Positions 3,001 through 61,956 of a DNA stretch of 64,000 nt are shown piece by piece. A model generated the notes under the pieces. It was not told the DNA's origin. It saw nothing but the letters and a program-made list of their open reading frames with translations, and searched no databases. Origin of the DNA: Patescibacteria group bacterium (GTDB lineage Bacteria > Patescibacteriota > Patescibacteriia > Patescibacteriales > UBA12465); contig JBAZJV010000001.1 in NCBI GenBank assembly GCA_041651095.1, positions 83,835 to 147,834 of the forward strand, in the 5' to 3' direction. Position 1 is the stretch's first letter. The number at the start of each line of letters is the position of its first letter. The position numbers were made by a program, and so were the translations under genes.

Positions 3001-6000
3001 GGGGAACAGAAGGAGTACTATACGCAGTTGAAGCAATGCATTAAGCCGGACACCAACAGTTGCGCCAATTTTTATTCCTGGGAAGGGACGGCTAGCGGTT
3101 ATCAGCTCAAGGCCTATAGCCTGAAAAAGAGCGGCAATGAGCCGGCCGTCACCGCCCCGGAAGTAACCGGCGATGGAGACGCTTTATGCGACGCCGCCAT
3201 TTACCATCTGCCGGCCAGCGATCCGCGCTATAATCCGGATTGCCGGGAATTCTATAACGCCGCCGGCCAGGTCTCCTATCATCTCAATTCCCGGACCTAT
3301 ACTTGTTCCGACGATTGCCATACTTACCGGATGACGGCGAAGAACGCTGGCAATGTCTGCCTGAATGGCGGCACCTGGGACGCGGTGTCCGGCGCTTGTA
3401 TCTATAAAGCTATTCCGGGAGAAGGGCAGATCTGTCGAGCCGAAGAAAACGGCTGCCGCGAATATAATGGCAATAATGGCAGCAATGTCCGACTTTTAGC
3501 TTCTTATGACTTTGAAAACGGCGCTGGCGGCTGGTTTTCACCGGTCGGCGGCGCCCTGCAGATTACCAATATCGCTAACAATAAGGACGGGCATTCATTA
3601 CTGATACCTGCTCATGTTCCGATCGAGCTGCCGGTCAGCCGCCTGGTGCGTTCCGGTTCGGCCTATACCATTAAATTCCTGGCCCGCTCGGGAGTCGATA
3701 CTGATCTGCGCGTCTATTTCCAGAACCCCAATACCAGTGCCAGCACTGATTTCTCCACCATTACGGTCAAGGGCGGCAACGAATGGCGCATCTATCAGGC
3801 TAATCTGCCCGCCTTGGATCACGCGGTCGGCCAGCCGAACGCCAGCTATCCGAACGGCGAAGTAATGTTCGTGGGCAGCGACAACGGCGATCTTTATCTT
3901 GATAATTTCATTCTATCGGAGATCGTTGACCGCTATTATCTGATCCAGGGCTCCAGCCAAGTGCCCGATGCCTGTTATTATGATAATCAGAACCGGTATC
4001 AAGGCGCTGACTTTAATCTCGGTTGCGCCCAATATACCGATCGCAACAACCTGAAGCATAATCTGCACCGTTTTACCCAACTCTGTTCCGATTCGGCGGT
4101 CGGATGCGAGCAGATGATCGATACCAAGAATTATTCTCCCTATGGTGCCGGTTTCTGGGAGAAGGGAGTCGCCACGTCCAGCTGCGATACCGCCAACAAT
4201 CCGGATTGCGTCAAAGTAGAGGGCGATAGCGCGATCTATGCCGTTTATGACCAGACCAAGCTCTGTACGGCCGCCAACCAGGGCTGCAGCCGTTTAGGCG
4301 AAGGGCAGGGCGGTGCTAATTTTACCGGCTGGTCAGATGTTTTCAAGAACAATAACCCTGATAATTATGATACAGCCCTTTGCAGCCAGGCTAATGTCGG
4401 TTGCGAAGCCTGGCAGAGCGAGGACGACAACACAACCAGCTATTTCAAGAACCCCGGTTCGGCGGTCTGCGCTTATCGGACCAGCACCAATCCCGGCGTT
4501 ATCGGCAAGCGCTGGTTCAAGGTGCCGGTCAAGCGTTGCGATGTTAACGGCAACGGCGCGATAGATATCGCCACGGAAGGGAAAGGGATAATTTGCTCCA
4601 GCGACAGCAATTGCGGCAGCCGCAAATGCCTGATCGATAATAACGACTATGAATGCCCGGTCACCTATACTAAGACCATCGGGTTCGGCGGTGCCGGCGG
4701 TCAGATCCCGACGCCGCTGGGCAATGCCGGCCAATGCACCGCGGCCGCTTCCGGCTGCACGGAATATATCGACCCGGTAACCAAGTTTGCCCAGAATCTG
4801 GTAGAAAATCCCGGCTATGAAACCGTTTTCGGCAATCTGGACGGCTGGGGGGCGGCGGCGAAACAGAAATGGAACGGCGCCGTACCGGGCATCGGCCAGC
4901 AGGCCGTCAAATTAGAACCCTATAAATTATATAGCGCGGTGGCTATTAATGCTTCGGAGGCCAGTCCGGTGAGCCTGAACTTCCTGCATGTCGCTAGTCG
5001 TTTGGGGGATGATAACCTCTTAGCCGCGGCGACCAGCACCTTCGTGCTCGCTAATAGCCAGCCGGTGATTTTCGATGCCTTGAATAATTCGGCCGTTCTC
5101 ATCACCGGCGGCGCCCTCGGCAAGACTATCAGCCTTAAAGAACTGGCGGTTGATTATCAATTAAAGAAGAATATTGACAAGAGCGGCTGCCAGGGACAGA
5201 CCAAATTCGATAACGGCTGCATCCTGTTCAATGAGCGGGCAGTCAACGGCGCCGCTCCGGTCAGCTTGAACAGCGACGCTTATGCCACGCCGGACGGATC
5301 TACGCCGGTGCTCTGCAGCCAGACCGGCTCCTGCACGGCTAACCAGCTTATAAAGGTGCGGCCGGATCGGGTCTGCGCTCGTTGGTTGGACTGCGTCAGC
5401 TATACCAAGGATCCGGACACCCAGAAGAAGACCTGTTATGCTTTCGGCGAATGCGACCGCCTGGACGATAAGGGCGAATGTGCCGATTTCCTCAACCCCA
5501 ACCCCTCTCCTTTCGCCTTGAATCCAAAAACGGACCAGAACGCAAGCGGCTATTCTCTGGCCGGCCATTACGATCTCAGCGACATGGTTCTGGCCGGGCG
5601 CAGCTTGGATCAGGATTTCCGTTATGATTTTGAAAGCGGCCAGACTCGTCCCGACCAATGTTCCGGCGCCCTGACTACCAATTGTGTCATTGATAATCCT
5701 GATTTGGCCGGCAGTTTTGGTACGGATTATCCGGCCCATGGGTTGTCCTATCTGAAAGTCGGCTCCACCGATTATCCTTTAGCGCAGAATATCGTTGCCA
5801 AACCGGCTTCCAGCACGGACGAATACTTCATCAGCTATCTGGTCAATACCAAGGATTCCGGTGGCTCTTTCGCGACTATTACCTTTACCGATCAGAACGG
5901 TTCGGTTATCAAGGCTACTTCCAGCGCGCCGACCGGCTGGCAAAGAAAGGTGCAAAAATTAAATTTCGGTTTGGGCAAGAAGATCATGACAGTCGCTTTA

Positions 6001-7887
6001 TCGTCAACCTCCAATACCGCCCCCGGTCCGGTCTATTTTGACGATATCAGCATCGCGCCGGTCTTGAAAATGTCGGGCGGAGACGATATTGCCGCGCCGG
6101 AATGCCGGTTGTATCCGTCGACGACTAGTCTGACTTGCGAGAACCGGAACCAGAACGTAGTGTCCGACGGCCTGGAAGGCTACTGCTTGCAATATGATCC
6201 GGCTAATCCCAAAGTCTGCTTGCTCTGGTATCCGATGGATAATATCCCCTTGCCGTCCCGTTCGGTCCTGGGCTATGACGGCAATTTCCCCTTGAATTTC
6301 TGTACGGCGGTAAGCGGCAACTTCGCGCTGGTGGAGAAGCGGGTAGGGTATCATTTGAAAGGGTTTCCCTCTAATGAATGGCGTTTATGCGGCGAGAACG
6401 GAGAGACCCATCCATATGATGATGGCACCAATGATGAATGTACTAATTTTGGCCGTGCTTATACTGGTAGTTGCGGTAGTGGCGGCGAATATTATTGTCC
6501 GGCCGATTATGACCTTTTGGTCTCCGTTAAGAAAGGGGACGGCGGCGCTTCCCAGGGCCATTTCAACCTGATGTGCGTGCCTAAGAAGGATAAATTATTG
6601 ATAGTGACAAATTCCCAGGCTACTTCCGAACAATCAGCCAATGGCGGCAACTGGGAAACTTGCCAGATGAATAAGCAAGGCTCTTATCATGTTGAAGGCT
6701 ACGGCGTCCATAACGGCTTCCAGGGCTGCGAAGGCGCGGGCGGCGGTGTTTCCGGCTGTAATTATCCGCAGCCGAGTTTGCGGATATATGATTATAGTAA
6801 AGATTATAGTCAATTTGCCTCTTCAGAGGCGGAAGCTAAATTGGGCGTTATCCCCGGCTTAAACTCAGGCGCGGCCGCCGATGCTAGTTATTTTCATTTC
6901 AATTGTACGAACCTAATCCAGGCCGTGGAGGCTACCGGTGCTAATAATGCCTGGGTGCAGCGCAATAAGGCTGATTCCGGATTTGTCTTAAAGTCGTCGC
7001 TTTTTGTTTCCGATTACGGTCAGGCTCTCGCTAGCCCGCCTTTCGGCGCCGCTAGCATCGGCCGCAATGTCGGTGATGGTGTGCTTCCTTTGCGTGACCG
7101 GGCGCTTCCTTCGGCCGATCCTTATGCCGGGCGACCCTATGGTTGCGTAAACGGCAGCGGTACTGATTCCGCTCAGAATTGCAAGCTGATCGGCGTCTGT
7201 TCGAACGATGCCAATACTTATTGTCTGGCCACTTCCACTGCCAGTCTTTCAACGGCAACCTGTAAAGGCGGCACTTGCCAGGCGCTTTGGAAGCCGGGTA
7301 GCGGTTATTTCAATGACATCGGCTTGGTCAAAAATACGGCCAAGAATATCCTGAAATACATTTTTCTCAGCGCCAAGAACTCCTTGGTCCTAGATAGCGC
7401 CAGCAATCAGGATAAGCCGACATATACTCTGGATCCGGACGCCAACTTTGATTTTAGCAGGACCGGCAGTACGCCCATAACGAAATTATGTAACGACACC
7501 GGCTTGGGGCCGCGAAAAGAGCCCACTTATCAGGATAATGATCCCAGTTTCTGCGCCATTTTACCGAAGTTGACTAATGTCAGGCTATATTTCAACGACA
7601 GTCAGATTGGCTCCGACACTAATCCTTACATCATCGAACAGAAAGGGATTTACCGCTTGGAATTGAACAGCGAAATAGATGATGAGCAGCAGCCGCTCAA
7701 GAGAATCACTATCGACTGGGGCGACGGCTATAGCCAGACCGTGACCAACCAGGACCATCATCCGACCGTGGGCGACCCGCATACTTTCTACCACTATTAC
7801 TATCAGACTGGTCCGAAGGAAATCCGCGTCCGGATCGTCGATAATTGGAGTTTTTACAAATGTAATTATAATTGTCAGCCTGATTAA
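1..7887 (+). CDS. Giant (>2,600 aa) secreted cysteine-rich surface protein; 5' end runs off the window
   Basis: Frame 1 is open from nt 1. Nt 1-105 encode LKKKKTGRPANRLAAFLLALSFISVLILPLRPAQA: a basic n-region, a hydrophobic core and an AQA cleavage-type site. The TTG at 82 used by the ORF track is therefore probably internal. The body holds nine C-x5-G-C-x2-[YFLMW] motifs, four jelly-roll/CBM-like modules and a C-terminal PKD-like segment (ITIDWGDGYSQT...HTFYHYY..GPKEIRVRIVDNW). Confidence 0.85.
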   Translation, partial: LKKKKTGRPANRLAAFLLALSFISVLILPLRPAQAQFGGFVTDIGNTMVNTAAWIWDKTSTVIWEAIQKAGSIAFQRTLSSALNKIAYDAANYIGSGGKGQKPLFVTQSLGDYLLQAGDEAAGTFIESFVNNLNAPDQNMTCQRQYDSDVETCSDVFFDDATSYRYCITQADIAATECASKNANSSNVGNVTPSFNVCSPSSIEAKIRIGLGLVDQTRPQGPNCTASQMIKSWGDDINKKISDLRDPNYLNLFTSIFDPRSNDVGIYVTARSDLSSQANFKKEVTQSDFITNKGFLDVRDISGAIQGVPGEAQREADAAAKARQDALGKTTGDILVDSANIFLNQLYIAAFNNLLQNLAKKSGGSSNAILTNPESDPGASQGTTAVKQLTTSLLQPKFGVRADYDILSSLAICPDPKNPGPDNCVMDDKFMQAITEKKTVAEAIREGYLHGDWQITADSTGDSYNRSYALRNLLILRKYRILPAGWEAAAQQLIADPEHPKKATLNDLVSCFDRNDQYNSFSADFLPDRAWCEGLVDPNWVLKAPLNYCKKEGVGAQIIDLNVIGGYGMSSSTLSITRADGYCADNQTCIKEKSDGSCEAYGYCTGEKRTWAFDSEACEPINNTCQSFSDASGRRFSYLKNTLDYAGCNSNNAGCRQYALVGAFATSTQTVAWSGGAVRYFNKTLGVCSNAEEGCTALLRLKPTWGANLVMNSNFGNDQIGDSAVSGRLNDWPVYGQGLIVDGSQEPGGTSGKVLQLSASSGVAGLYSDAGHSLLPANFQIIAGQSYTVSADVYLAAHDASGAGVKLNIGSGENMISAGTTALNRWQHLTVTMPAGNSYNEPAFSLTAGAGAIFYVQNLKFEMSDWETAYTTYGAAKFYERLLPPYLEKACYVNATGGTKDYNLRADAPAICGNYARKCNREEVGCELYTSVSDRFSVGAKTTSADYCQAECLGYDVYVAKASYFNIATADKLIPAKATDCRASAAGCNEFTNLDALNQGGEQKEYYTQLKQCIKPDTNSCANFYSWEGTASGYQLKAYSLKKSGNEPAVTAPEVTGDGDALCDAAIYHLPASDPRYNPDCREFYNAAGQVSYHLNSRTYTCSDDCHTYRMTAKNAGNVCLNGGTWDAVSGACIYKAIPGEGQICRAEENGCREYNGNNGSNVRLLASYDFENGAGGWFSPVGGALQITNIANNKDGHSLLIPAHVPIELPVSRLVRSGSAYTIKFLARSGVDTDLRVYFQNPNTSASTDFSTITVKGGNEWRIYQANLPALDHAVGQPNASYPNGEVMFVGSDNGDLYLDNFILSEIVDRYYLIQGSSQVPDACYYDNQNRYQGADFNLGCAQYTDRNNLKHNLHRFTQLCSDSAVGCEQMIDTKNYSPYGAGFWEKGVATSSCDTANNPDCVKVEGDSAIYAVYDQTKLCTAANQGCSRLGEGQGGANFTGWSDVFKNNNPDNYDTALCSQANVGCEAWQSEDDNTTSYFKNPGSAVCAYRTSTNPGVIGKRWFKVPVKRCDVNGNGAIDIATEGKGIICSSDSNCGSRKCLIDNNDYECPVTYTKTIGFGGAGGQIPTPLGNAGQCTAAASGCTEYIDPVTKFAQNLVENPGYETVFGNLDGWGAAAKQKWNGAVPGIGQQAVKLEPYKLYSAVAINASEASPVSLNFLHVASRLGDDNLLAAATSTFVLANSQPVIFDALNNSAVLITGGALGKTISLKELAVDYQLKKNIDKSGCQGQTKFDNGCILFNERAVNGAAPVSLNSDAYATPDGSTPVLCSQTGSCTANQLIKVRPDRVCARWLDCVSYTKDPDTQKKTCYAFGECDRLDDKGECADFLNPNPSPFALNPKTDQNASGYSLAGHYDLSDMVLAGRSLDQDFRYDFESGQTRPDQCSGALTTNCVIDNPDLAGSFGTDYPAHGLSYLKVGSTDYPLAQNIVAKPASSTDEYFISYLVNTKDSGGSFATITFTDQNGSVIKATSSAPTGWQRKVQKLNFGLGKKIMTVALSSTSNTAPGPVYFDDISIAPVLKMSGGDDIAAPECRLYPSTTSLTCENRNQNVVSDGLEGYCLQYDPANPKVCLLWYPMDNIPLPSRSVLGYDGNFPLNFCTAVSGNFALVEKRVGYHLKGFPSNEWRLCGENGETHPYDDGTNDECTNFGRAYTGSCGSGGEYYCPADYDLLVSVKKGDGGASQGHFNLMCVPKKDKLLIVTNSQATSEQSANGGNWETCQMNKQGSYHVEGYGVHNGFQGCEGAGGGVSGCNYPQPSLRIYDYSKDYSQFASSEAEAKLGVIPGLNSGAAADASYFHFNCTNLIQAVEATGANNAWVQRNKADSGFVLKSSLFVSDYGQALASPPFGAASIGRNVGDGVLPLRDRALPSADPYAGRPYGCVNGSGTDSAQNCKLIGVCSNDANTYCLATSTASLSTATCKGGTCQALWKPGSGYFNDIGLVKNTAKNILKYIFLSAKNSLVLDSASNQDKPTYTLDPDANFDFSRTGSTPITKLCNDTGLGPRKEPTYQDNDPSFCAILPKLTNVRLYFNDSQIGSDTNPYIIEQKGIYRLELNSEIDDEQQPLKRITIDWGDGYSQTVTNQDHHPTVGDPHTFYHYYYQTGPKEIRVRIVDNWSFYKCNYNCQPD

Positions 7888-11496: not shown

Positions 11497-12459
11497 ATGC
11501 CTACTCTTACAACCGAATTACTACAACAGGAAATAGACTATGTGCTGGCTAACGACGATTGGCAGGGCGCTTTTGAGGCGTATTCGATTACTCGCGACTG
11601 GCTGGCGGCTAATAAGACCTTGAAAAGTAATTCTCGGGAATATGCCCAGTACCAGAATCTGCTGATGAAATTGAAATTCCTTAGCCTGAATTATTTCGAC
11701 GACGTTCAGGATTATTATGATTTACTGAAGAATTATTTGCCGTTAGCTCTGGAAATGCCGGATTATGATCTGTGGGGCCGCTTATCAGCCCAATTGACCT
11801 ATCTGCCGTTAATCGAGTCGCGCGATACTTTCAAGGCCAAACTGCGCGAAGCCTTAGAACACTCCGACAGCCTCCTGCTCAACCGGCAGAAGTATCCGCA
11901 GGAAGGCATGCCGTATAAAGTCGGCGATTGGATTAAGGATTTTGTGGCTAACCTTGGTTTGGATAATTTTGATAAGTTGAAGAAAGTGGAATATCTGGAG
12001 CACGGCAAATATATCAAATTGCTAAAACCGGAGGATAAGGAAAAAATCAAAGTCCTGCTGAACGTTTATGAGAATCTTAAATTATCTTCCCGGACGCCAG
12101 TCGGCTATGACAACGCGGTGGCGATGAATATTGACGGCAAGCAGATCATTTTTGATCATGGGCAAGCGGAAGAAGTATTACCGACCCTTTTAGAGGATAT
12201 TAAGAAGCTCTCAGGCGAGGCACCCGCCGCCCTGGCGCCGGCTGCCGCCCCGGCCGCCCCGGCAGTTGCTGTCCGTCCGTCTAGCCAGTCCGCAGCGCCG
12301 GCCTCAGCGCCCGCCGATCCGATTGCTGAATTAGAAAAACTGTTGGCCGAATATCCGTCCAGCAGCCTGGAGCATAAAGCGATCAAGCAGGAAATCAACC
12401 GTTTGAAAGTCGCCGCGTTCAAAGCGGCTCAACAGTCCAAAACCAATGTCAAGAAATAA
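11497..12459 (+). CDS. Hypothetical protein with an Ala/Pro-rich linker
   Basis: Intact 320-aa ORF, 9 nt after the preceding gene. No motif recognised. Low-complexity stretch APAALAPAAAPAAPAVAVRP. Confidence 0.65.
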   Translation: MPTLTTELLQQEIDYVLANDDWQGAFEAYSITRDWLAANKTLKSNSREYAQYQNLLMKLKFLSLNYFDDVQDYYDLLKNYLPLALEMPDYDLWGRLSAQLTYLPLIESRDTFKAKLREALEHSDSLLLNRQKYPQEGMPYKVGDWIKDFVANLGLDNFDKLKKVEYLEHGKYIKLLKPEDKEKIKVLLNVYENLKLSSRTPVGYDNAVAMNIDGKQIIFDHGQAEEVLPTLLEDIKKLSGEAPAALAPAAAPAAPAVAVRPSSQSAAPASAPADPIAELEKLLAEYPSSSLEHKAIKQEINRLKVAAFKAAQQSKTNVKK

Positions 12460-13423: not shown

Positions 13424-14673
13424 AGTATCACGTTAAGGATCTAGGCCTAGCGGCCCAGGGTGAAAAACGCTTGGAATGGGCCGGCCGCGATATGCCGGTG
13501 CTTTCCGGCATCAAGACGACTTTCCAGAAAAGCCGGCCGTTCAAAGGCCGGCGGATTTCCGCCTGCATGCACGTGACCGCCGAGACCGCCAACCTGATGC
13601 TGGCCTTGCAGGCCGGCGGCGCCGACATCACCCTGGTCGCTTCCAATCCGCTTTCTACGCAAGATGACATTGCGGCCACTCTGGTCAAGAACCATGGCCT
13701 GAAAGTACTGGCGGTACATGGCGAAAGTACCAAGGTCTACTATGAACACTTGAATCAAGCTTTGAAGAATAAGCCGCAGATTACCATGGATGACGGCGCG
13801 GACCTGATTTCTCTGTTGCATAATAAATATAAGGATCAGGCTAAAGATATCCTAGGCAGCATGGAAGAGACGACGACCGGCGTTATCCGCTTGCGAGCTT
13901 TGGCCGCGCATCATAAACTGCTGCTGCCGGTCATTGCCGTCAACGACGCTAAGACCAAGAATCTGTTTGATAACCGCTATGGCACGGGGCAGTCTACCTT
14001 GGACGGCATTATCCGGGCGACCGGCATCCTGGTTGCCGGCAAGACTATCGTCGTGGCGGGCTATGGCTGGTGCGGCCGCGGTTTTGCCATGCGGGCGCGC
14101 GGCTTGGGCGCCAAGGTGATAGTGACCGAAGTGGACGAAATTAAATCTTTGGAGGCGGCCATGGACGGATTTTCCGTTATGCCCATGGCGGAAGCTGCCA
14201 AGGTCGGTGATGTTTTCTGCACCCTGACCGGCGATATCAAGGTCATTGACCGGCCGCATTTCCAGTTGATGAAAGACGGAGCCATGGTCTGCAATTCCGG
14301 GCACTTCGACGTGGAAATAAACCTGCCGGCCCTGAAAAAAATGTCGCGGCGGGTCAGTCGGGTAGCCGATCAAGTGGAAGAATATCTGGTCGGCCGGAAA
14401 CGGATTTACGTGCTCGGCCAAGGGCGCCTGATCAACCTGGCGGCGGCCGAAGGCCATCCTTCCAGCGTGATGGACATGAGTTTTGCGACCCAGGCTCTGG
14501 CCGCGCAGTATGTCGCCAAGAATGCCGGCAAATTGAGCGCTAAGGTCTATAATGTGCCGGAGAGCATTGAAAAACAGGTAGCGACCCTCAAGCTTAAATC
14601 ATTAGGTATTAAAATAGATAAATTAACCAAGGAGCAGGCAGCCTATCTGGCTTCCTGGGAATTGGGCACTTAA
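13420..14673 (+). CDS. ahcY: Adenosylhomocysteinase (S-adenosyl-L-homocysteine hydrolase)
   Basis: The N-terminus [24 protein letters not shown], the NAD-binding [11 protein letters not shown] and the 417-aa length are typical of the short AhcY form. Confidence 0.95.
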
Positions 14674-19938: not shown

Positions 19939-21411
19939 ATGAAGCGCGATCGCTCTCAGACAACCCGTTCCTCTAATCGCCTGTTGGTCAACCCTGACCA
20001 GGACCTTTTCCGTTGGAAGGTGGACGCTTATCCTTCCCTGGTTTACGCCGTCTGTCGCGACATGACCAAGTCGCCGTATGGCTGGCCGAAGTCGGAAGGC
20101 TTTTTCTTCGGGCATGATTTCTATTGGTATGATAATTGGTCGGTTATTTGGGCGCATGGTGACAAGTTTATCGCCAAGTATCTGAAACATTCCCGCGGTC
20201 GCTTGCCGGCTGAACGAATAAGACGGTATGGGGCCGCTTTTAAGAGTCTGCGCCGTTTGGTAGCGCGTAGCGCCAAGGCAAATTACGCTCAGCTGGAGTT
20301 ACCGGCTTTGCGTCGCCAGTGGTTCGCTTTTTTTAAAACTTATGCCCATTTTTGGCTGGTCATCACCGATATAGAGGTCCTGAATTACGCCGCCAGCCGC
20401 CGGTTGGAAAAGTTGATCGCTCAACGCCGGATCAAGCTCAGCCCGGATGAAATTTCCCAGCTGACTGCTTTCCCGCAGCGGTCTTATATTTTGGAAGAGG
20501 AATATGAATTATTGAAAATCGCTTTTGCGTTGTCAGCCTCCCGCCGCCCGGCCGCGCTCCGACGCCACGCCAGTAAATTTTCCTGGATTTTAAACGGCTA
20601 CCATGGCGTCCGGCCGGCAACGGCGAAATTCTTTGTCGATCGCCTGCGCCGCTTCTTAACTGACCGGCAGGCCAGGGAACATTACCAGCAACTGAAAGAT
20701 TATTATCGCCTGACGGAGAGAAAATTCAAACAGATAGTTAAACAGCATAACCTGGATTCCGAAATCGTTAAATACGCCCGACTAGCCCAGCAGGCTTCTT
20801 TTATCCAGGATCGGCGCAAAGCCTTGGCCTGGCGGGCCACGACTTATATCATTGCCCTATATCGGCGTCTGGCTCAGCAACTTGATTGCAACCTGGAACA
20901 GGCCCTGTATATTCTATGGGATGAATTCGATACCGCCGTTAAAAATCCCGGAACGATGCTCAAGGAAGTCGCCCGGCGTCAGAAATGTTCCCGTCTGCGT
21001 ATTTGGGGCGATCGGACCACGATTTCTACCAAGGATGTCGCCAGGATTTTCGCCGTCTTTGAAAAGCAATATGTTGCTGCTCTGGGTCAGGAGGTCAAGG
21101 GGACGATTGCCTATACCGGACGAGTGGTCGGCCGGGTACAAATAATTTCGGGCGGAAAGGATATCAGCCGTTTCCAACCGGGCCGGATCCTGGTAGCGCT
21201 CATGACCTCGCCGGACTATATCGCGGCGATCAAGAAAGCCAAGGCCATCGTGACGGATGACGGTGGCCTGACCTGCCATGCCGCTATCGTGGCGCGGGAA
21301 TTAAAAAAGCCCTGTATTGTCGGAACCAGGAACGCGACGAAGGTCTTGCATGATGGCGATCTGGTGGAAGTAGATGCCAACCACGGGATAGTTAAGGTTA
21401 TTAGTCAATAA
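19939..21411 (+). CDS. Paralog 3 of 9: helical domain plus swivel phosphohistidine domain
   Basis: GRILVALMTSPDYIAAIKKAKAIVTDDGGLTCHAAIVARELKKPCIVGT. His codon at 21277-21279. Confidence 0.85.
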   Translation: MKRDRSQTTRSSNRLLVNPDQDLFRWKVDAYPSLVYAVCRDMTKSPYGWPKSEGFFFGHDFYWYDNWSVIWAHGDKFIAKYLKHSRGRLPAERIRRYGAAFKSLRRLVARSAKANYAQLELPALRRQWFAFFKTYAHFWLVITDIEVLNYAASRRLEKLIAQRRIKLSPDEISQLTAFPQRSYILEEEYELLKIAFALSASRRPAALRRHASKFSWILNGYHGVRPATAKFFVDRLRRFLTDRQAREHYQQLKDYYRLTERKFKQIVKQHNLDSEIVKYARLAQQASFIQDRRKALAWRATTYIIALYRRLAQQLDCNLEQALYILWDEFDTAVKNPGTMLKEVARRQKCSRLRIWGDRTTISTKDVARIFAVFEKQYVAALGQEVKGTIAYTGRVVGRVQIISGGKDISRFQPGRILVALMTSPDYIAAIKKAKAIVTDDGGLTCHAAIVARELKKPCIVGTRNATKVLHDGDLVEVDANHGIVKVISQ

Positions 21412-47282: not shown

Positions 47283-48293
47283 ATGGAAAAAGATTTAATA
47301 AAAAATGAAATCAATATTGAATTACATTATAATTTCATTGATAGTAATAGCCATTCAATAAATTTTCATACCAGAAATATTTGTGCACTGGCTCAGGTTG
47401 AACTCATATCTTATATCATAAGAACATTGTATCCTGATGAAAATTTTGAAATATTATCACTGCCACCTCAGGAGGGATCTTTCAAGGATTTAACCGTTGT
47501 TAAATTTTTAAATAAAAATCAGGGTGTAATTTTAACAGTTGGTACTTTATTTACTGTTTTATTATTTAATAGTCAAGTAAGGGTTAATAATACAACTGCA
47601 GATTTTAACACTTTAGAAATTGTAGAGAAATGTAAAAATTTTGATGTAGATGATGAAAAAATTAAAAAAATTGAGGATATTTGTAAGTCGTACTATCCTA
47701 AAAAACAAAAAAATATCTTCTATGAATCAGTTATAGCGGATGCAAGTGTTACTAGTATAAAACCAACCATATCAGAGAATGAAAACATTTTTGAAAAAGA
47801 AATCAATAAGAGTGATTTTGAAAATTATCTTGAGGATATACCCAAAGAAAAAGAATTTTTAAAAACCGATTTGTCTGGGCATATACAGTTATCTCAACCA
47901 TTCATCGATAAACAACAGCAGTATGGTAGAGGTGTCGCTTGGAAAGGAACGTATTATGGTGATGATATCTTTGATGAAAATAATGAGCTTATTATAGAAG
48001 ACGGGGAATATATATTTTTTTACATGCAGGATGACGAGTATAAAGAGCAAATCCTAAAGCAAGAAATTTCTTTTACTAGTGGTGATAATATAGGTGTTAT
48101 TTTCGATGTTAGTCGTTATTATGATTATTTTAATGATAAATATGGTAAGCCAAGATTATATATAAAAAGAGTTGTATCTCATAATGATAATTTAGTACAA
48201 CATAAAAAAGACTTGGCATTAAAAAATGAAAAAAGAAAATTTGAGAAAAAAAATAAAAATCAAAGATCATTATTCGAAATTGCTCAAGAATAA
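47283..48293 (+). CDS. Hypothetical protein embedded between hsdM and hsdS
   Basis: 336 aa counted from the ATG at 47283. The tracked 47217 start overlaps hsdM. No motif recognised; the sequence is Asn/Lys/Asp-rich. Confidence 0.65.
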   Translation: MEKDLIKNEINIELHYNFIDSNSHSINFHTRNICALAQVELISYIIRTLYPDENFEILSLPPQEGSFKDLTVVKFLNKNQGVILTVGTLFTVLLFNSQVRVNNTTADFNTLEIVEKCKNFDVDDEKIKKIEDICKSYYPKKQKNIFYESVIADASVTSIKPTISENENIFEKEINKSDFENYLEDIPKEKEFLKTDLSGHIQLSQPFIDKQQQYGRGVAWKGTYYGDDIFDENNELIIEDGEYIFFYMQDDEYKEQILKQEISFTSGDNIGVIFDVSRYYDYFNDKYGKPRLYIKRVVSHNDNLVQHKKDLALKNEKRKFEKKNKNQRSLFEIAQE

Positions 48294-48294
48294 T

Positions 48295-49497
48295 ATGATT
48301 AAACATCAAAATAAAATTGAAAAGTTAATATTGGAATTATGCCCAAATGGCGTTAAGTATTTTACTGTTGGGGAAATCTGTGAGATAAATCGTGGCAGAG
48401 TTATGTCGAAAGACTACCTTCGAGAAAATGTTGGCGAATATCCTGTGTACTCTTCTCAGACGGCAAATGAGGGTGTTTTTGGTTATATTAAAACCTATGA
48501 TTACGATGGAGAATACGTGACCTGGACGACTGATGGTGCAAATGCAGGATCAGTGTTTTATCATAATGGAAAATTTAGTATTACAAATGTTTGTGGTTTA
48601 TTGAAACCAAAGACAAGTAATTTAAATGTTAAATATTTACTGTATAGTTTAAGCATCATAGCAAAATCTTATGTAAATGCTGGCATGGGTAATCCAAAGT
48701 TAATGAGTAATGTAATGGCAAGAATTAAAATTCCTGTTCCACCTCTTACAATCCAAGAAGAAATTGTAAAAATTCTTAATAGTTTTACAGAGCTGGAAGC
48801 AGAGCTGGAAGCAGAGCTGGAAGCAGAGCTGGAAGCAAGAAAGAAACAGTATAATCATTATAAAGACGAGTTACTGAATATTGAGGGTGCAGAAAATAAA
48901 GTTTTGGGAGATATAGGAACCATGATTAGAGGAAACGGATTACAAAAGAAAGATTTTATGGAAACAGGAGTCGGGTGTATTCACTATGGCCAAATATACA
49001 CCTATTACGGAACTTTTACAGATAAAACTAAATCATTCGTATCACCAGAATTAGCAAAAAAATTAAAGAAAGCCCAAAAAGGAGATGTAATAATTACCAA
49101 TACGAGTGAAAATCTCGAAGATGTGGGAAAAGCTGTCGTTTGGTGCGGTGAGAATGAAATTGTAACAGGTGGACATGCAACAATTTTCAAACCTCAAAAA
49201 GTTACTGGAAAATATTTTGCATATTATACACAAACAAAAATGTTTTTTGATCAAAAGAAAAAATATGCAAAAGGTACAAAAGTGATAGATGTTTCAGCTA
49301 CAGATATGAAAAAAATTAAAATACCCGTTCCACCACTCGCCGAACAAGAACGAATCGTCTCGATTTTGGATAAATTTGATGCACTTGTTAACAATATTTC
49401 AATTGGTTTGCCTGCCGAACTTAATGCACGCAGACAACAATATGAATATTACAGAAACAAACTTCTAACATTTAAGGAATATGCCAACGAAAAATAA
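48295..49497 (+). CDS. hsdS: Type I restriction-modification system, specificity subunit
   Basis: Two target-recognition halves (VGEICEINRGRVMSKDY and LGDIGTMIRGNGLQKKDF). Conserved IPVPPL..EQ..IV..L helices follow each half. There is a central (ELEA)x4 coiled-coil. The start is set at the ATG 1 nt after the upstream stop. Confidence 0.9.
   Translation: MIKHQNKIEKLILELCPNGVKYFTVGEICEINRGRVMSKDYLRENVGEYPVYSSQTANEGVFGYIKTYDYDGEYVTWTTDGANAGSVFYHNGKFSITNVCGLLKPKTSNLNVKYLLYSLSIIAKSYVNAGMGNPKLMSNVMARIKIPVPPLTIQEEIVKILNSFTELEAELEAELEAELEARKKQYNHYKDELLNIEGAENKVLGDIGTMIRGNGLQKKDFMETGVGCIHYGQIYTYYGTFTDKTKSFVSPELAKKLKKAQKGDVIITNTSENLEDVGKAVVWCGENEIVTGGHATIFKPQKVTGKYFAYYTQTKMFFDQKKKYAKGTKVIDVSATDMKKIKIPVPPLAEQERIVSILDKFDALVNNISIGLPAELNARRQQYEYYRNKLLTFKEYANEK
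48789..48836 (+). repeat. Four perfect tandem copies of the 12-bp unit AGAGCTGGAAGC inside hsdS
   Basis: Read directly from the sequence. It encodes ELEAELEAELEAELEA in the central conserved region between the two TRDs. Confidence 0.95.
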
Positions 49498-52544: not shown

Positions 52545-52577
52545 AAAGCGTCAACGATATTATGTTGGCGTTTTTTT
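52545..52577. terminator. Intrinsic terminator shared by hsdR (+) and the recombinase gene (-)
   Basis: AAAA, CGTCAAC (52549-52555), 8-nt loop, GTTGGCG (52564-52570, one G-U pair), then T7. Confidence 0.55.
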
Positions 52578-53922
52578 ATTCTTCCAACAATGTTAAGACT
52601 TTATCTTGATACTTTATTCTTGACCTTAAGTTTCCAAGCAACTCTCTCTTCTCACTTACTGATCCCTCTTTCAAGATATACTTCGCATAGTTTCTAATGT
52701 CAGTCTCTTTTGGGGCTTTCACCTTATCAGTGCTACCCAGTACTGATCTTTGGAATATATTAAATCTTGAAATTTCATCCTCTAATCTTTGTCGCATGCC
52801 AAGTTCGTTGATATTTACTTTATCTAATATTTTCAGCAGTTCAGTAATAAGTTCTTCTTCCCGAATGTATTTATTTTTACAATTTCTATCTCTGGCTCTT
52901 GAGCAAGAGTAGTAAATATACCTCGCATGCGTTCCATCTTTAAGTTGTTTGTATTTTTCTTCGGCAGATATACCACTTCCACAATATCCGCAGGTAAACA
53001 ATTTAGTGAAGGCGAATTCTTTATTTTCTCTCACTATTTGATCACGTTTCAACTGAGCTTTGGCTTTTTCAAATAACTCTTGCTTTATAATTGGTTCATG
53101 TTTACCGGTATACCAATTTCCACTATCCTTTGGGTGTTCGAATACTCCATAATAAAAAGGGTTATCTAGTATTCTATAAATTCCACTTAAAGTTAGTGGC
53201 TTATTGCCCCTCGTATAGAAGTTAATTTCATGTTTAAGCCAGTTGTATATTTTTCGTCCTGAATAATGTTCGTAGGCAACTTTTTCAAACATTTTCTTAA
53301 TTACTGGAGACCTAAGCGGATCAATAATTATCTGACATTTTTTATCCATCCTATTTTGATTCAAATATCCAAGTGGTGCCACGCCTGGCCACAAGCCCAT
53401 CTCGACTCTTGTGCGTAATCCTCGTTTTACATTGATGCCTCTGTTGTCATTTTCTAGTTTGGCTTGCGATCCTAAAATCATGAGTAAAAACTTTTCATTT
53501 GGATTGTTGCTGAATTTCTGTCCGTAAGTTCGTATTTCTTGAAGTTTGCCACTATCCATTAAATCCACAACTTTACCGAGATCGCCAGCATTTCTTGAAA
53601 TTCGGTCAGGTGCCCAAGTTAGAATTCCATCAAATTTACCTTGTCTTAAATCTTCGATTAATTCGTTAAAGATTGGTCGTTGGCCAGTCTCTTTGGCTGA
53701 GTGTGATTCTCTCTTAATATCTGTCACTAAGAGTCCTTCTTTTTCTGCCAGCTGAAGCATTTCTTTCACCTGCGAGTCTATTGAAAGCACTTGGCGTTCC
53801 TCGCTCTCGGTTGATTTGCGAGCGTAAAGACAGTATTTAACAGGAGAAGGAGCTAAAACCTCTCTGGACTTAGTGGCCGTCATTTGGCCCACAGCCAGGC
53901 CATAATTTGCGTTATACGTCAT
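52576..53922 (-). CDS. Large serine recombinase (resolvase catalytic domain, recombinase domain and zinc ribbon)
   Basis: CLYARKSTESEERQVLSIDSQ carries the catalytic Ser context. Also RISRN, the recombinase-domain pattern LGYL..., and the zinc-ribbon CGYCGS...YYSC. 448 aa. Confidence 0.9.
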   Translation of the reverse strand: MTYNANYGLAVGQMTATKSREVLAPSPVKYCLYARKSTESEERQVLSIDSQVKEMLQLAEKEGLLVTDIKRESHSAKETGQRPIFNELIEDLRQGKFDGILTWAPDRISRNAGDLGKVVDLMDSGKLQEIRTYGQKFSNNPNEKFLLMILGSQAKLENDNRGINVKRGLRTRVEMGLWPGVAPLGYLNQNRMDKKCQIIIDPLRSPVIKKMFEKVAYEHYSGRKIYNWLKHEINFYTRGNKPLTLSGIYRILDNPFYYGVFEHPKDSGNWYTGKHEPIIKQELFEKAKAQLKRDQIVRENKEFAFTKLFTCGYCGSGISAEEKYKQLKDGTHARYIYYSCSRARDRNCKNKYIREEELITELLKILDKVNINELGMRQRLEDEISRFNIFQRSVLGSTDKVKAPKETDIRNYAKYILKEGSVSEKRELLGNLRSRIKYQDKVLTLLEE

Positions 53923-59306: not shown

Positions 59307-59738
59307 TTATCCTCGTGGATGTGCCTGTCTGTATTTATCCATCAGCCACTGAAAGCTTTTATTACTAACGGATATTGGGTATCCAGTTTCATCAAAATAT
59401 ACCGAAATGGAAATCATTTTCTTGTTGGCCAACGAGAAAATTAAATAAATCAAACCTGGCAATATCCATAGCAACAACAGTATGACCAAAACGACCCCAT
59501 TCAATCCACGCCACTCTTTGTTTAAAATGATGTAGTTTTGTTTGTAGTTTTTAGAAACTACATTGTATGACGGGTATTCCTGTTTTACAAAGTCTATAAA
59601 GCTATCGAACCGGTCATCCCCAGTTTCATTACCAGAGGATGAAGTAGCTTTACCTGCCTGGTTCAGGAATTCGCCACAGTGTTTACACTTTTTGGCATCT
59701 TCTTGCACCTCTTCGGCGCAGAATGGACACTTCTTCAT
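59307..59738 (-). CDS. Zinc-ribbon membrane protein
   Basis: The N-terminal CPFCAEEVQEDAKKCKHCGEF is a C-x2-C...C-x2-C ribbon. TM helix VVLVILLLLWILPGLIYLIF. Confidence 0.65.
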   Translation of the reverse strand: MKKCPFCAEEVQEDAKKCKHCGEFLNQAGKATSSSGNETGDDRFDSFIDFVKQEYPSYNVVSKNYKQNYIILNKEWRGLNGVVLVILLLLWILPGLIYLIFSLANKKMISISVYFDETGYPISVSNKSFQWLMDKYRQAHPRG

Positions 59739-59777
59739 AATGTATGAAGTTAATAATTAGACGGGTAAAACAAAAAA

Positions 59778-59918
59778 GGGCAGTCTTACCCGACTAGCCA
59801 CTTTTCGCGAAACCCAAAGGCTCCGTTTGTGGAGGTAGACTGCCCATCCTTATCCGCAAACGGAAAAGACGGGCTGTCTTTGACCCTTGGATTTATCGCG
59901 ATTAAATTGTGGCTAGTC
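59778..59918. ncRNA. Candidate structured RNA or leader element (strand unresolved) in the divergent intergenic region
   Basis: Five complementary segment pairs. (1) 59792-59801 with 59909-59918, 10/10. (2) 59805-59810 with 59896-59901, 6/6. (3) 59814-59820 with 59884-59890, 6/7. (4) 59822-59833 with 59853-59864, 12 bp including one G-U. (5) 59778-59790 with 59834-59845, 12 bp plus a 1-nt bulge, which pairs the apical loop with the flank. Confidence 0.4.
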
Positions 59919-59995
59919 ATATACAATTATAGGTTATTTGACCCTTTTTTACAATAGGCCTACACCTTCGACCTTTACTAATACAGATGACACAC

Positions 59996-60054
59996 CTGGC
60001 AAATTAGTCCAGTTGGTAAACTGTAGGTAACTTATTACCAAAAGCCAGTTTTTT
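59996..60054 (+). terminator. Possible plus-strand intrinsic terminator
   Basis: CTGGC (59996-60000) pairs with GCCAG (60044-60048), and TTGGTAA (60013-60019) with TTACCAA (60035-60041). T6 follows at 60049-60054. There is no annotated plus-strand gene upstream. Confidence 0.3.
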
Positions 60055-60078
60055 AAGCTAAAATGAAGTCAAATCTGA

Positions 60079-60107
60079 TTGACTAAGCGGTCTGGAAGGG
60101 GTAAAAT
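60079..60107 (+). promoter_or_regulatory. Candidate promoter of the Gabija-like operon
   Basis: TTGACT (60079-60084), N17, TAAAAT (60102-60107), 35 nt upstream of the ATG at 60142. Confidence 0.45.
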
Positions 60108-60141
60108 TAAACTGTGTTGTTCAGATAACCTATTCAAATTT

Positions 60142-61956
60142 ATGAAAGTAATTTATTTAAAAATTGAAAATTTTCGCGGCATAAAAACTGCTGAATTATT
60201 TTTTAGTGGACATACTTTATTTGTAGGCAACAACAATGTTGGTAAATCGACTATTTGTGAAGCGCTGGATTTGTTGCTTGGGCCAGATCGGTTAAGTAAA
60301 CCAATTGACGAATATGATTTTTACAATGCTAAATATCTAGCTGAAGATGGTAGTGCAATTTCAATTTCAATTGAGGCTGTTTTAATTGATCTTTCCGAGG
60401 AATTTCAGAGTAAGTTTTCAAATCATCTTGAATTCTGGAATAAGGTTGAAGGTCGTCTACTTGGTCAGGAAGAAATTGAAGCCACAAACAACGAAAATGT
60501 TTGTCCGTGTTTAAGATTACATTTTAAAGCAAATTATGATTCAGAGGAAGATGAATTTGTAGCTAAAACGTATTATAGCCATAGTCCTGATGAAGATGAT
60601 GGGAAGTTTACGGAAGTTTACCGGTCTCAAAAGCGAGAATTTGGTTTTTTATATTTGAGGGCTTTGCGGACAGGTAGTAGAGCTTTAAGTCTTGAAAAAG
60701 GAACTCTATTAGATGTTTTACTTCGTCTAGGTGAAATCAGACCTCACTTATGGGAGGATACTAGAAACACTTTACTAAATTTAGACCCTGCAATTGATGC
60801 GTCTATTGACCCACTAAGATCTGTATTAAATAATATTGAAGAGAGAATAAGCCAATATATACCACTTGATACTCGTGAAAAAAGAACCAGATTGTTTGTG
60901 TCACAATTGACTCGTGAGCATTTGCGAAAAACTCTTTCATTCTTCATGTCTACAGCTCCAGATCAAGCACCTATTCCTTTTCAGGATTTAGGAACAGGCA
61001 CATTAAGCACCTTAGTTTTTGCACTTCTTTCAGCTATAGCAGAATTGAAAAAGGATAATGTTATTTTTGCTATGGAGGAACCAGAAATTTCAATTCCACC
61101 ACATACTCAGAGACGAATAATAAATTACTTACTTGGTAATACTTCACAATCTTTTGTTACATCACATTCACCATATATAATAGAAAAATTTGAACCAGAA
61201 CAAATCATAATACTTAGACGAGGTGATGATGCACAAATGACAGGAACTTCTGTGACCTTGGCTTCGGGGATGAAAGCGAAAAATTACCAACGTAAATTAA
61301 GACACTCAATAGCCGAATGTTTATTGGGAAGAGCAGTTATCATTGGAGAAGGATTGGTTGAGCAACAAGTATTGTCCGCAGCCAGTGAAATAATGGAGAA
61401 AAATATTGCGAATTACCCATTAGATCTATCGGGAGTTTCCATCTTCGATTCTGGTGGTGATGGAACCTTGCAAGAATATGGAGCCTTTTTCCGTTCTTTA
61501 GGTCTTAAGGCATACGCATTTTATGATAAGAAAAAAAGATCCAACGAGGAAATCCAAAAAATAACAGCAAATTTTGATTATGCTAAAGAAACAGATTATA
61601 AAGGCATTGAAACATTGTTGACGACTGAAATACCAGTTGATGTCCAGTGGCAGTATCTAGAAATTATGTCATCTTCCGGTCTTCTGACTAAAGGTCCAAC
61701 AATTCCAGCAAATAAACCGACGGATAAAGAAATTCGTAGTCTAACACAGCAGATATTGGTTGATCACAAAGGAGATTCCCGTGGTGCTGATTTAATCAAA
61801 TTATGTTCTGAAAATAACTTACCAAATAGTGTAAGTGAGTTTTTACAGAAAGTGTATCAAGATTTTCCTAAACCAACGGAAGTGCAACCCGTTGTATTTC
61901 AACCCGCTCTCGTTCAAGTTGACCTTGATCTTAAGGGGGAGGAAACAAATTTTTAA
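60142..61956 (+). CDS. gajA: OLD-family ATPase/Toprim nuclease, GajA-like
   Basis: The N-terminus MKVIYLKIENFRGIK...FVGNNNVGKST is the ABC/AAA_15 Walker A region. Walker B-like VIFAMEEPE and SHSPYII are present. The Toprim-like segment is AVIIGEGLVEQQVL. A UvrD-like helicase gene follows directly (class 2 OLD arrangement). Confidence 0.8.
   Translation: MKVIYLKIENFRGIKTAELFFSGHTLFVGNNNVGKSTICEALDLLLGPDRLSKPIDEYDFYNAKYLAEDGSAISISIEAVLIDLSEEFQSKFSNHLEFWNKVEGRLLGQEEIEATNNENVCPCLRLHFKANYDSEEDEFVAKTYYSHSPDEDDGKFTEVYRSQKREFGFLYLRALRTGSRALSLEKGTLLDVLLRLGEIRPHLWEDTRNTLLNLDPAIDASIDPLRSVLNNIEERISQYIPLDTREKRTRLFVSQLTREHLRKTLSFFMSTAPDQAPIPFQDLGTGTLSTLVFALLSAIAELKKDNVIFAMEEPEISIPPHTQRRIINYLLGNTSQSFVTSHSPYIIEKFEPEQIIILRRGDDAQMTGTSVTLASGMKAKNYQRKLRHSIAECLLGRAVIIGEGLVEQQVLSAASEIMEKNIANYPLDLSGVSIFDSGGDGTLQEYGAFFRSLGLKAYAFYDKKKRSNEEIQKITANFDYAKETDYKGIETLLTTEIPVDVQWQYLEIMSSSGLLTKGPTIPANKPTDKEIRSLTQQILVDHKGDSRGADLIKLCSENNLPNSVSEFLQKVYQDFPKPTEVQPVVFQPALVQVDLDLKGEETNF

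Follow-up and report, generated by a model that had tools for sequence, protein, structure and literature searches.

The element at 59778-59918 of the analysed window is a conserved, structured RNA of about 150 nt, read from the minus strand at the start of a mobile-element operon, that probably acts as a transcription stop/go switch and is an undescribed relative of the orphan LOOT RNA. The window is the whole 64,000-nt stretch of contig JBAZJV010000001.1 (positions 83,835 to 147,834; assembly GCA_041651095.1) of a Patescibacteria (CPR) genome. A first-pass annotation had described a densely paired rod with loop-to-flank pairing in the spacer between divergent genes, and had left open a minus-strand terminator/antiterminator leader and a plus-strand ncRNA of about 300 nt. 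Here, folding, covariance model searches and comparison with related loci were used to examine these readings. All conclusions rest on sequence analysis, as no transcript, termination or structure-probing data of any kind exist, and the proposed function is inferred.

Structure and strand of the element

The observation of the first-pass annotation was confirmed, since every helix it had listed was present in the sequence. The segments 59792-59801/59909-59918 pair over 10 of 10 positions, 59822-59833/59853-59864 pair over 12 nt at 92%, and 59778-59786/59837-59845 pair over 9 of 9 positions, the latter extending to 12 bp with a 1-nt bulge; the TCGCGA/TCGCGA pair (59805-59810/59896-59901) and the pair 59814-59820/59884-59890 are also present. 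The promoter matches TTGTAA-17-TATAAT (minus strand) and TTGACT-17-TAAAAT (plus strand) and the U run after the loop/flank helix were likewise recovered. The direct repeat TTTGACCCTT is real, but it is not conserved in the near-identical locus L083 (the compared loci are referred to by such running numbers) and is probably due to chance. The structure is far more than chance would give: the minus strand folds at -73.9 kcal/mol against -39.9 +/- 3.7 for shuffled sequences (z = -9.1), whereas the plus strand folds at -58.5 kcal/mol (z = -5.6).

The first-pass statement that wobble positions do not resolve the strand is right within this one sequence, but comparative data do resolve it in favour of the minus strand. 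A covariance model of the element scored 167 bits on the minus strand and 20 bits on the plus strand, and in the aligned copies G-U outnumbers A-C by 27 to 5 cells for the minus strand. In addition, the closing stem of the plus-strand hairpin followed by T6 is not kept in L083, although the DNA is conserved there. The plus-strand ncRNA reading is thus not supported.

On the minus strand, a sigma-70-type promoter (59926-59954) consists of TTGTAA (59954-59949), a 17-nt spacer and TATAAT (59931-59926), with 10 of 12 matches, and ends 6-7 nt before helix P1; the predicted transcription start is at about 59920-59918, the first bases of P1. A -10 box sits 6 nt before the first G of P1 in all window-type loci. 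The 5′ strand of P1 (59909-59918, GACUAGCCAC) pairs with 59792-59801, that of P2 (59896-59901, UCGCGA) with 59805-59810, and that of P3 (59884-59893, AAUCCAAGGG) with 59811-59820. A small side hairpin, P3a (59865-59881, AAAGAC-AGCCC-GUCUUU), lies at a three-way junction and is followed by the 5′ strand of P4 (59853-59864, UCCGUUUGCGGA), which pairs with 59822-59833 with one C-A mismatch on this strand. The 19-nt apical loop of P4 (59834-59852) contains segment X (59845-59834, GGGCAGUCUACC). After the 3′ strands of P4 (59822-59833) and of P3, P2 and P1 (within 59792-59820) follows segment Y (59778-59790, GGU-A-AGACUGCCC), which pairs with X over 12 bp with a 1-nt bulge. A U run (59767-59777, UUUUUUGUUUU, U6GU4) directly after Y is the predicted termination point and gives an RNA of about 152 nt. 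A further segment D (59758-59771, GUUUUACCCGUCUA) pairs with 59783-59796, that is Y plus the end of P1, across the U run (-17.3 kcal/mol, z -5.7), and a U-U mismatch in this pairing becomes U-G in L083.

The first gene downstream (59307-59738, minus strand) encodes a 143-aa protein with a predicted N-terminal zinc ribbon and one membrane helix, and its start codon lies 28 nt after the U run. Pfam searches of this protein gave only weak, sub-threshold zinc-ribbon matches, and its AlphaFold model (pLDDT 83.5) had no PDB fold match at E <= 0.001. On the other side, DNA upstream of the promoter (59955-60058) is conserved in L083 and contains GTTGGTAA-type motifs, and the variable cargo, Gabija in the window, begins beyond about 60058. 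A 44-codon ORF runs from an AUG at the predicted start (59920) to a UAA in Y; as it stops after 3-8 codons in L261, L169 and L087, a leader peptide was rejected.

Conservation and covariation

The same architecture was found in eight other Patescibacteria mobile-element loci, so that nine copies share the promoter, RNA and U-run layout followed by a co-directional ORF. Exact-pattern scans of viral contigs gave 0, 1 (L257) and 7 hits, the seven being chance matches without a covariance model hit. Protein-guided scans of viral, metagenome and genome collections were swamped by the generic CPxCA zinc-ribbon word, and only L087/L167, L168 and L169 were useful. As a control, no model hit was obtained in 200 loci (about 1 Mb) that carry generic zinc-ribbon genes.

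In the alignment of the copies, 96.2% of 422 pair cells are paired and 39 of 53 pairs show double (compensatory) changes, with a covariation score of 0.59 against 0.05-0.11 when the partners are slid; however, the helix alignment used for these counts was fitted by hand to the structure, which inflates the percentage paired. P1 is 97.8% paired with double changes in 6 of 10 pairs, P2 shows double changes in 6 of 6 pairs among the five sequences that have it, P3 is 90.5% paired with double changes in 9 of 10 pairs, P4 is 95.5% paired with double changes in 10 of 15 pairs, and X:Y is 100% paired. Over 11 sequences including the LOOT loci described below, X:Y is 98.4% paired and all 12 pairs covary. 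Between the window and L083, none of the seven substitutions in the RNA, leader and D falls in P1, P3, P4, X or Y; five lie in unpaired positions and one improves Y:D.

These data bear on the possibility that the element acts only as DNA, its repeats being binding sites for a recombinase, repressor or terminase. X, Y and D are indeed three copies of one short motif in alternating orientation close to recombinase genes, and conserved DNA motifs exist just upstream. However, compensatory changes preserve pairing and not sequence in five helices, the excess of G-U over A-C is strand-specific, which DNA sites would not show, and the promoter and U run frame the structure exactly. A DNA-level explanation is not supported and is considered very unlikely.

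A small-molecule riboswitch was also considered, because the element is a promoter-proximal structured leader with a three-way junction and a P1 helix whose 3′ strand can, in this lineage, alternatively form a terminator hairpin with Y. Among 7 diverged copies, though, only two unpaired positions outside X, Y and the U run, A13 and one loop A, are invariant, junction sequences and lengths vary freely, the downstream genes are mobile-element genes of unknown function and not metabolic or transport genes, and completely different scaffolds, LOOT and the L277 type, substitute for this one. This reading is regarded as improbable.

Genomic context and relation to LOOT RNA

The RNA travels with the zinc-ribbon/membrane-protein gene module next to the recombinase, and not, as the first-pass annotation had implied by placing it in front of an operon including terS and terL, with the terminase genes as such. 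In L258, L257 and L277 the terminase genes lie on the other strand, and islands that lack the zinc-ribbon gene (L085, L086) lack the RNA. Three further loci, L249, L268 and L269, carry Rfam LOOT RNA (RF03000) in the same position, and one, L277, carries a third scaffold; all have the same X:Y-plus-U-run module, and 12 of 12 family loci carry such an RNA of one of three scaffolds. In all 12 loci tabulated for the leader layout, a U-rich run (U4-7, G, then more U) starts within a base of Y, although for two LOOT loci it was read from the sequence because no run was scored automatically; it is also present in L277. The RNA is 129-165 nt long to the end of the U run, the figures for these two LOOT loci being measured to the end of Y, and 147-165 nt in the ten loci where a run was scored. 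A co-directional ORF starts 25-46 nt later in 12 of 12 loci. No second promoter was called in the window leader, but in some other loci an AT-rich TATAAA-like box between D and the start codon could be a second promoter.

Rfam searches on both strands gave no family match for the window element, which the first-pass annotation could not assign to any known RNA family by eye, the best hit within the element being a 15.8-bit small-SRP match on the wrong strand. No LOOT match was found in 59400-60500 at E <= 10, in the whole window at gathering threshold (46.4 bits for RF03000), or in the window-type loci L087, L247 and L258 at E <= 1, while L269, L249 and L268 as positive controls scored 84, 73 and 63 bits. 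Conversely, the window-type model gave no hit on the LOOT loci. However, the element is a positional and modular relative of LOOT RNA, tied to it by position and by a shared output module.

Alternative pairings and proposed mechanism

Several pairings compete with the rod, with comparable energies by computation alone. The X:Y duplex has an energy of -14 to -21 kcal/mol and ends at the U run, giving a G+C-rich stem immediately followed by a U run, although this main stem is long-range. Y:D hairpins of -10 to -21 kcal/mol were predicted, with z of -2.1 or lower in 10 of 12 loci. The 5′ part of P3a is also the 5′ strand of an alternative hairpin (Alt, 59837-59879) that hides X and competes with P3a and P4, at -22 to -26 kcal/mol and in the window, L261 and L169 only; in these three loci Y can also pair locally with the P1 3′ strand (-9.4 kcal/mol in the window), a hairpin called by the terminator scan of the window. 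In the second subgroup of loci the U run has no local hairpin, so X:Y is the only candidate stem.

The first-pass interpretation was thus partly supported, its minus-strand leader holding up. The analysis is taken to show a conserved, structured RNA of about 152 nt on the minus strand, with its predicted start at the foot of P1, forming the 5′ leader of the operon that begins with the zinc-ribbon/membrane-protein gene in an AT-rich integrative element, together with its rod, the displayed segment X, the complementary Y and the U run; how it works, including any regulated termination or read-through, is inferred. The favoured reading, held with moderate confidence, is a cis-acting transcription attenuator with an as yet unidentified trigger. 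In this view X:Y is the stem of an intrinsic terminator, so pairing of loop X with tail Y would stop RNA polymerase at the U run and release a short RNA. If X is hidden by the Alt hairpin, conserved in this lineage, or is held too far from Y by the fully formed rod, polymerase would read through, Y would be captured by D and the zinc-ribbon operon would be expressed; in this lineage Y could also invade P1 to form a conventional local terminator hairpin. The near absence of invariant unpaired bases argues for a protein, an RNA partner or folding kinetics and against a small-molecule ligand. Some points speak against this model. As a nested replacement of the whole rod, X:Y is 14.5-27 kcal/mol worse and was rejected, so it must form as a pseudoknot or at the expense of P1 only, and that the geometry allows this is inferred. 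A terminator stem with a structured loop of about 44 nt is unconventional, no demonstrated example being known to us, and D lies after the U run, so that Y:D cannot itself decide termination and its role is unexplained.

A less likely possibility is a stand-alone small RNA gene acting in trans on a protein or another RNA, with X:Y merely part of its compact pseudoknotted fold and terminator and with incidental read-through into the zinc-ribbon gene. The element has its own promoter and U-run end and a constant length, its structure is conserved but its sequence is not, LOOT is typed 'Gene; sRNA' in Rfam and not as a cis-regulator, and the rod is so stable that a constitutive fold is plausible. 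On the other hand, in all tabulated loci it lies at the 5′ end of a co-directional ORF, Y has a conserved second partner D that has no role in a terminated sRNA, and the alternative hairpin hiding X is conserved in this lineage. No convincing trans target of X was found in the window: apart from Y, the best sites were the antisense of an AhcY-like ORF and one weak site at 20014, and an exact 12-mer at 13987-13998 lies in a conserved coding motif and was treated as chance.

An address-coded immunity RNA, working like phage P1/P7 c4 or plasmid countertranscripts, is unlikely on present evidence. In this hypothesis loop X of RNA made by a resident element would pair in trans with Y on nascent transcripts of an incoming element of the same type and force termination at the U run, X, Y and D being the specificity code. 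X, Y and D covary as a set while the scaffolds differ, the RNA sits in the divergent control region of integrative elements next to recombinase or CI-like repressor genes, and X lies in a large loop as in antisense kissing systems. However, Y (GGUCGGGUGUCC) is invariant across five loci whose proteins share only about 50% identity with the window protein, the opposite of a diversifying address, and nothing shows action in trans. If true, although this too is unlikely, the X:Y-plus-U-run module would be a programmable terminator addressed by base-pairing and shared by at least three unrelated scaffolds, an RNA-only superinfection-immunity system of Patescibacteria mobile elements that would give LOOT its first function.

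The element adds a well-supported structured RNA motif, absent from Rfam 15, from a lineage with very few known regulatory RNAs, and gives LOOT a concrete genomic context, the leader of a zinc-ribbon membrane-protein module in integrative elements beside recombinases and defence cargo, which yields a testable mechanism. If the loop-to-tail helix really is the terminator stem, it would be an unusual long-range or pseudoknot form of intrinsic termination. The RNA also marks the conserved edge of a hot spot for defence cargo, Gabija in the window and CBASS in L083.

Comparison with known systems

LOOT RNA, an orphan motif introduced in 2017 and of unknown function, lies in L249, L268 and L269 just upstream of the same zinc-ribbon/membrane-protein gene family in recombinase-bearing loci of the same kind. 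In these three loci it has a long hairpin whose loop pairs over 10-12 bp (12 bp with one bulge in L249 and L269) with a tail segment, followed within a base by a U-rich run and then by a Y:D-type hairpin, and the X/Y sequences of L249 (GGUCUUCCGACC / GGUUCGGGAGACU) resemble those of window-type loci (GGACAUUCCGACC / GGUCGGGUGUCC). LOOT differs by a 5′ domain with conserved CUAAAC...GCAUGG enclosing a hairpin and by two GNRA-capped hairpins 3′ of the long hairpin, present in all three loci. The window RNA begins GACUAGCCAC, has neither motif, and instead closes everything into one rod (P1-P3) with a three-way junction, the 3′ strands of P3, P2 and P1 following P4. As aligned here, the Rfam LOOT model ends before Y and the U run.

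With classical attenuators and riboswitch expression platforms, such as the trp leader, the element shares a promoter-proximal position, a chain of mutually exclusive pairings (Alt:X, X:Y, Y:D, and P1 against P1-3′:Y) around a U run and a co-directional ORF within 50 nt. It differs in that the candidate terminator stem joins an apical loop to a tail about 45 nt away across three helices, that no conserved leader peptide or ligand pocket is present, and that the last partner, D, lies after the U run.

Phage P1/P7 c4 antisense RNA (immI) is likewise a structured RNA encoded at the head of an operon of a temperate element, with an exposed loop complementary to a site further down the same transcript. 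There is no Rfam c4 match, and c4 blocks a ribosome-binding site and is cut out by RNase P, whereas here the target directly abuts a U run.

The HK022 put and Bacillus EAR antitermination RNAs are also folded RNAs in the leader of a long mobile-element or operon transcript, and a comparable processive antitermination role was considered because the element is promoter-proximal in a roughly 7-kb phage-like operon that includes terS and terL. This role is improbable, since in several loci the RNA precedes only one or two short genes with the terminase genes on the other strand, and no match to the EAR or put models was found in Rfam. Those RNAs suppress downstream terminators, while the RNA described here carries its own terminator-like module, the conserved X:Y helix and U run.

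Genomic setting of the element

In this Patescibacteria (CPR) genome, the G+C content falls from about 0.52 to about 0.34 from about 45.7 kb of the window onwards, just after a tRNA-Ser gene, and the genes located there are those of an integrative element. In map order these are a type I restriction-modification system, a large serine recombinase gene (52576-53922, minus strand), terL, a terS-like gene and two DNA methyltransferase genes, one of them fused to ParB, a gene for a 287-aa protein of unknown function, a gene for a 143-aa protein with a zinc ribbon and a membrane helix (59307-59738, minus strand), the 403-bp spacer that holds the element, and gajA and gajB (Gabija) on the plus strand. 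The HsdS-like ORF of the type I restriction system (48226-49497) contains a fourfold ELEA tandem repeat between its two target-recognition halves.

The helices listed in the first-pass annotation are present, and its observation of a densely base-paired element was thus confirmed. An inverted-repeat scan returned three of these helices at the coordinates listed there, the remaining pairs were checked base by base, and the two promoter matches and the U run were found by a consensus scan. The element folds much better than shuffled sequence on both strands and far better on the minus strand, with -73.9 kcal/mol (z -9.1) for the minus strand and -58.5 kcal/mol (z -5.6) for the plus strand. A search against Rfam returned no family matching the element.

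Identification of related loci

In order to find relatives of the element, the adjacent 287-aa and zinc-ribbon proteins were followed to other contigs. The locus L083 is a sister island with the same conserved gene module, but its cargo is a CI-like repressor plus CBASS instead of Gabija, and it carries a near-identical element. None of the seven substitutions between the two copies falls in the helices P1, P3 and P4 or in the loop and tail segments X and Y described below; five lie in unpaired positions and one turns a U-U mismatch in the hairpin between Y and the downstream segment D (Y:D) into U-G. Homology between the window and L083 stops at about 60058, beyond which the window has Gabija with its own promoter while L083 has the CI-like repressor and a CBASS operon. 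This looks like a cargo (defence) hot spot at the edge of the conserved module. Two islands that lack the zinc-ribbon gene, L085 and L086, lack the element. They share a different conserved leader (L085 5660-5860 and L086 2820-3020), which contains two TTAAGACT repeats and a CTAG...CTAG hairpin and has no U run.

A covariance model was built from the window and L083 and refined once. It found the same architecture in the loci L261, L169, L087 (=L167), L247, L168, L257 and L258-260; the zinc-ribbon proteins in these loci are only 45-57% identical to that of the window. Minus-strand scores were 64-168 bits, while opposite-strand scores were 35 bits or less. As a control, 200 loci (about 1 Mb) carrying generic zinc-ribbon genes from other phyla and from viral contigs were searched and gave no hit at E <= 1. 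A weak second copy of the motif (28 bits, E 0.003) was found in L257, a 32.5-kb IMG/VR contig, at 11790-11942 (minus strand), immediately upstream of a second serine recombinase gene, and its minimum-energy fold uses the X:Y-type helix instead of the rod. In L247, a group I intron match (93 bits) lies at 5938-6177 (minus strand), just downstream of the serine recombinase gene, which is called as 510 aa in L247 but is split into 346 + 146 aa in the locus L248.

RNA architecture and covariation

The RNA is read from the minus strand and all coordinates of its parts refer to the window. The foot of the rod is formed by P1 (59918-59909 / 59801-59792), followed by P2 (59901-59896 / 59810-59805) and P3 (59893-59884 / 59820-59811). 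A small hairpin, P3a (59881-59865), is located at the three-way junction, and the 12-bp helix P4 (59864-59853 / 59833-59822) closes a 19-nt loop (59852-59834). The segment X (59845-59834) lies in the P4 loop and pairs over 12 bp plus a 1-nt bulge with the segment Y (59790-59778), directly after which the U run follows (59777-59767, U6GU4). In L087 (2837-2850) and L247 (3841-3857) the P3a hairpin is followed by a U-rich junction and was flagged as terminator-like by the consensus scan, whereas the equivalent P3a hairpin of the window (59881-59865) is followed by UCCGUUU and was not flagged.

For the analysis of covariation, the helices were aligned by hand and the alignment was used unchanged for counting. 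Standard pairs are formed in 96.2% of 422 pair cells, as compared to 72% for shuffles and 31-45% for slid partners, 39 of 53 pairs carry changes on both sides, and the covariation score is 0.59 against 0.05-0.11 for slid partners. X:Y is paired in every sequence. Since the alignment was fitted to the structure the percentage paired is optimistic, but the size of the effect and the slid controls leave little doubt. G-U pairs outnumber A-C mismatches 27 to 5, which is expected only if the minus strand is the RNA and which argues against any explanation of the element as a DNA site, the least likely of the alternatives considered.

Promoter, U run and downstream genes

In every locus of the window type a -10 box ends 6 nt before the first G of P1. 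The distance from this G to the end of the U run is 147-165 nt in the ten loci in which a run was scored; in L249 and L269, two loci carrying LOOT RNA, a C separates Y from the run so that no run was scored, and their values (149 and 129 nt) were measured to the end of Y. A co-directional ORF begins 25-46 nt after the U run in 12 of 12 loci. The first ORF usually encodes the zinc-ribbon/membrane protein, but in some loci another short gene precedes it, and in L257 it encodes an unrelated membrane protein. The genes terS and terL are located downstream in the window and L083, but they lie on the other strand in L258, L257 and L277 (the last a locus with a further scaffold, described below). The RNA therefore belongs to the zinc-ribbon module beside the recombinase and not to the packaging genes, whereas the minus-strand reading of the first-pass annotation had placed a possible leader in front of the operon that includes terS and terL.

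A 44-codon ORF (59920-59786, minus strand) begins at an AUG at the predicted transcription start and ends at a UAA inside Y, but it is not conserved, as stops occur after 3-8 codons in L261, L169 and L087. A 13-nt inverted repeat, ATAGGTTATTTGA / TCAGATAACCTAT, at 59929-59941 and 60121-60133 is 92% complementary; one arm overlaps the -10 box of the minus-strand promoter and the other lies just downstream of the -10 box of the gajA promoter. It could be a shared operator for the divergent promoters. Moreover, a GTTGGTAA(C)/TTACCAAC motif recurs upstream of the leader promoter in many of these islands (window 60012-60020 and about 60036-60042; L087, L257 and L258 at -49 from P1; L085 5747; L086 2905), including islands without the RNA. 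An exact copy of the 12-nt loop X (GGGCAGTCTACC) was found at 13987-13998 (plus strand) of the window inside an AhcY-like ORF, within a conserved GQST coding motif. About 0.008 copies are expected by chance, but the match was noticed after the fact and is regarded as a coincidence.

Alternative pairings

Y also pairs with D just beyond the U run (window 59796-59783 with 59771-59758), with an energy of -17.3 kcal/mol in the window and -10 to -21 kcal/mol elsewhere, and ten of 12 loci reach a z of -2.1 or lower. In the subgroup of the window (window, L261 and L169) a strong alternative hairpin at 59879-59837 buries X; it scores -22 to -26 kcal/mol, with compensatory differences between the three loci. 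In the same subgroup the 3′ strand of P1 can pair with Y to give an ordinary terminator hairpin of -9 to -13 kcal/mol. The second subgroup has neither the alternative hairpin nor the local terminator, so X:Y is the only stem available at its U run.

In the window, the fold with X hidden is about 10 kcal/mol more stable than the fold with X displayed, and the X:Y duplex is worth about -20 kcal/mol. The competing states are therefore of similar energy. X:Y cannot replace the whole rod, because this costs 14.5-27 kcal/mol, and it must form as a pseudoknot or at the expense of P1 only. Y starts 0-2 nt after P1, while X sits about 26 bp away along the rod, from which it is inferred that full P1 and X:Y exclude each other. 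That would make P1 the anti-terminator.

Proposed mechanism

The interpretation given in the first-pass annotation was supported in part, as the reading as a minus-strand leader is supported while the plus-strand reading was rejected. The element is real, conserved and an undescribed RNA motif, and that it is a functional structured RNA on the minus strand is held with very high confidence. The best-supported reading of its role, which is regarded as only somewhat more likely than not, is a cis-acting transcription attenuator in which X:Y together with the U run would be the terminator, and in which hiding X, or keeping P1 closed, would give read-through, after which D would capture Y. The analysis established the RNA with its strand and helices, the complementarities X:Y and Y:D, and the layout of promoter, U run and ORF, whereas termination of transcription at the U run, the role of X:Y as the terminator stem and the mutual exclusivity of the states are inferences.

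Among the alternatives a stand-alone sRNA ranks as the most likely, followed by a c4-like immunity RNA acting in trans. The invariance of Y across five diverged loci weakens the idea of a diversifying address and suggests that Y or X is under an additional sequence constraint. With respect to the trigger, only two unpaired positions outside X, Y and the U run are invariant and whole scaffolds are interchangeable. A metabolite-sensing riboswitch, third in order of likelihood, is therefore unlikely, and a protein, an RNA partner or folding kinetics is more likely. An antiterminator of the put/EAR type ranks fourth, ahead only of the DNA site.

Comparison with LOOT RNA

Three loci with the same zinc-ribbon gene family, next to recombinase or integrase genes, did not match the covariance model (L249, L268 and L269). 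Instead, they match Rfam LOOT RNA (RF03000) at 63-84 bits in exactly the same position upstream of the zinc-ribbon gene (L249 3269-3401, L268 3792-3929 and L269 3493-3609). As aligned here, the Rfam model ends before the tail. In all three loci the loop of the long LOOT hairpin pairs with a tail segment, over 12 bp with one bulge in L249 and L269 and at about 10 of 12 positions in L268, a U-rich run starts within one base of this segment, and a Y:D-type hairpin follows. Counted together, 11 sequences give 98.4% pairing in X:Y, with compensatory changes at all 12 positions. A search of the available literature library returned no assigned function for LOOT, an orphan RNA.

A twelfth locus, L277, matches neither LOOT nor the window-type model. 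It has yet another rod-like scaffold (3790-3960), with a closing rod of ~19 bp and X (GGGCACUCCUGA) pairing 12/12 with Y (UCAGGGGUGUCC), followed by UUUUGUUUUU, and it lies upstream of another family member beside a serine recombinase. Hence, every full-length family locus examined has an upstream RNA with this output module on one of three scaffolds. The window RNA does not reach the LOOT model score and has neither the 5′ CUAAAC/GCAUGG domain nor the two GNRA hairpins of LOOT, and it is best described as a new structural variant related to LOOT.
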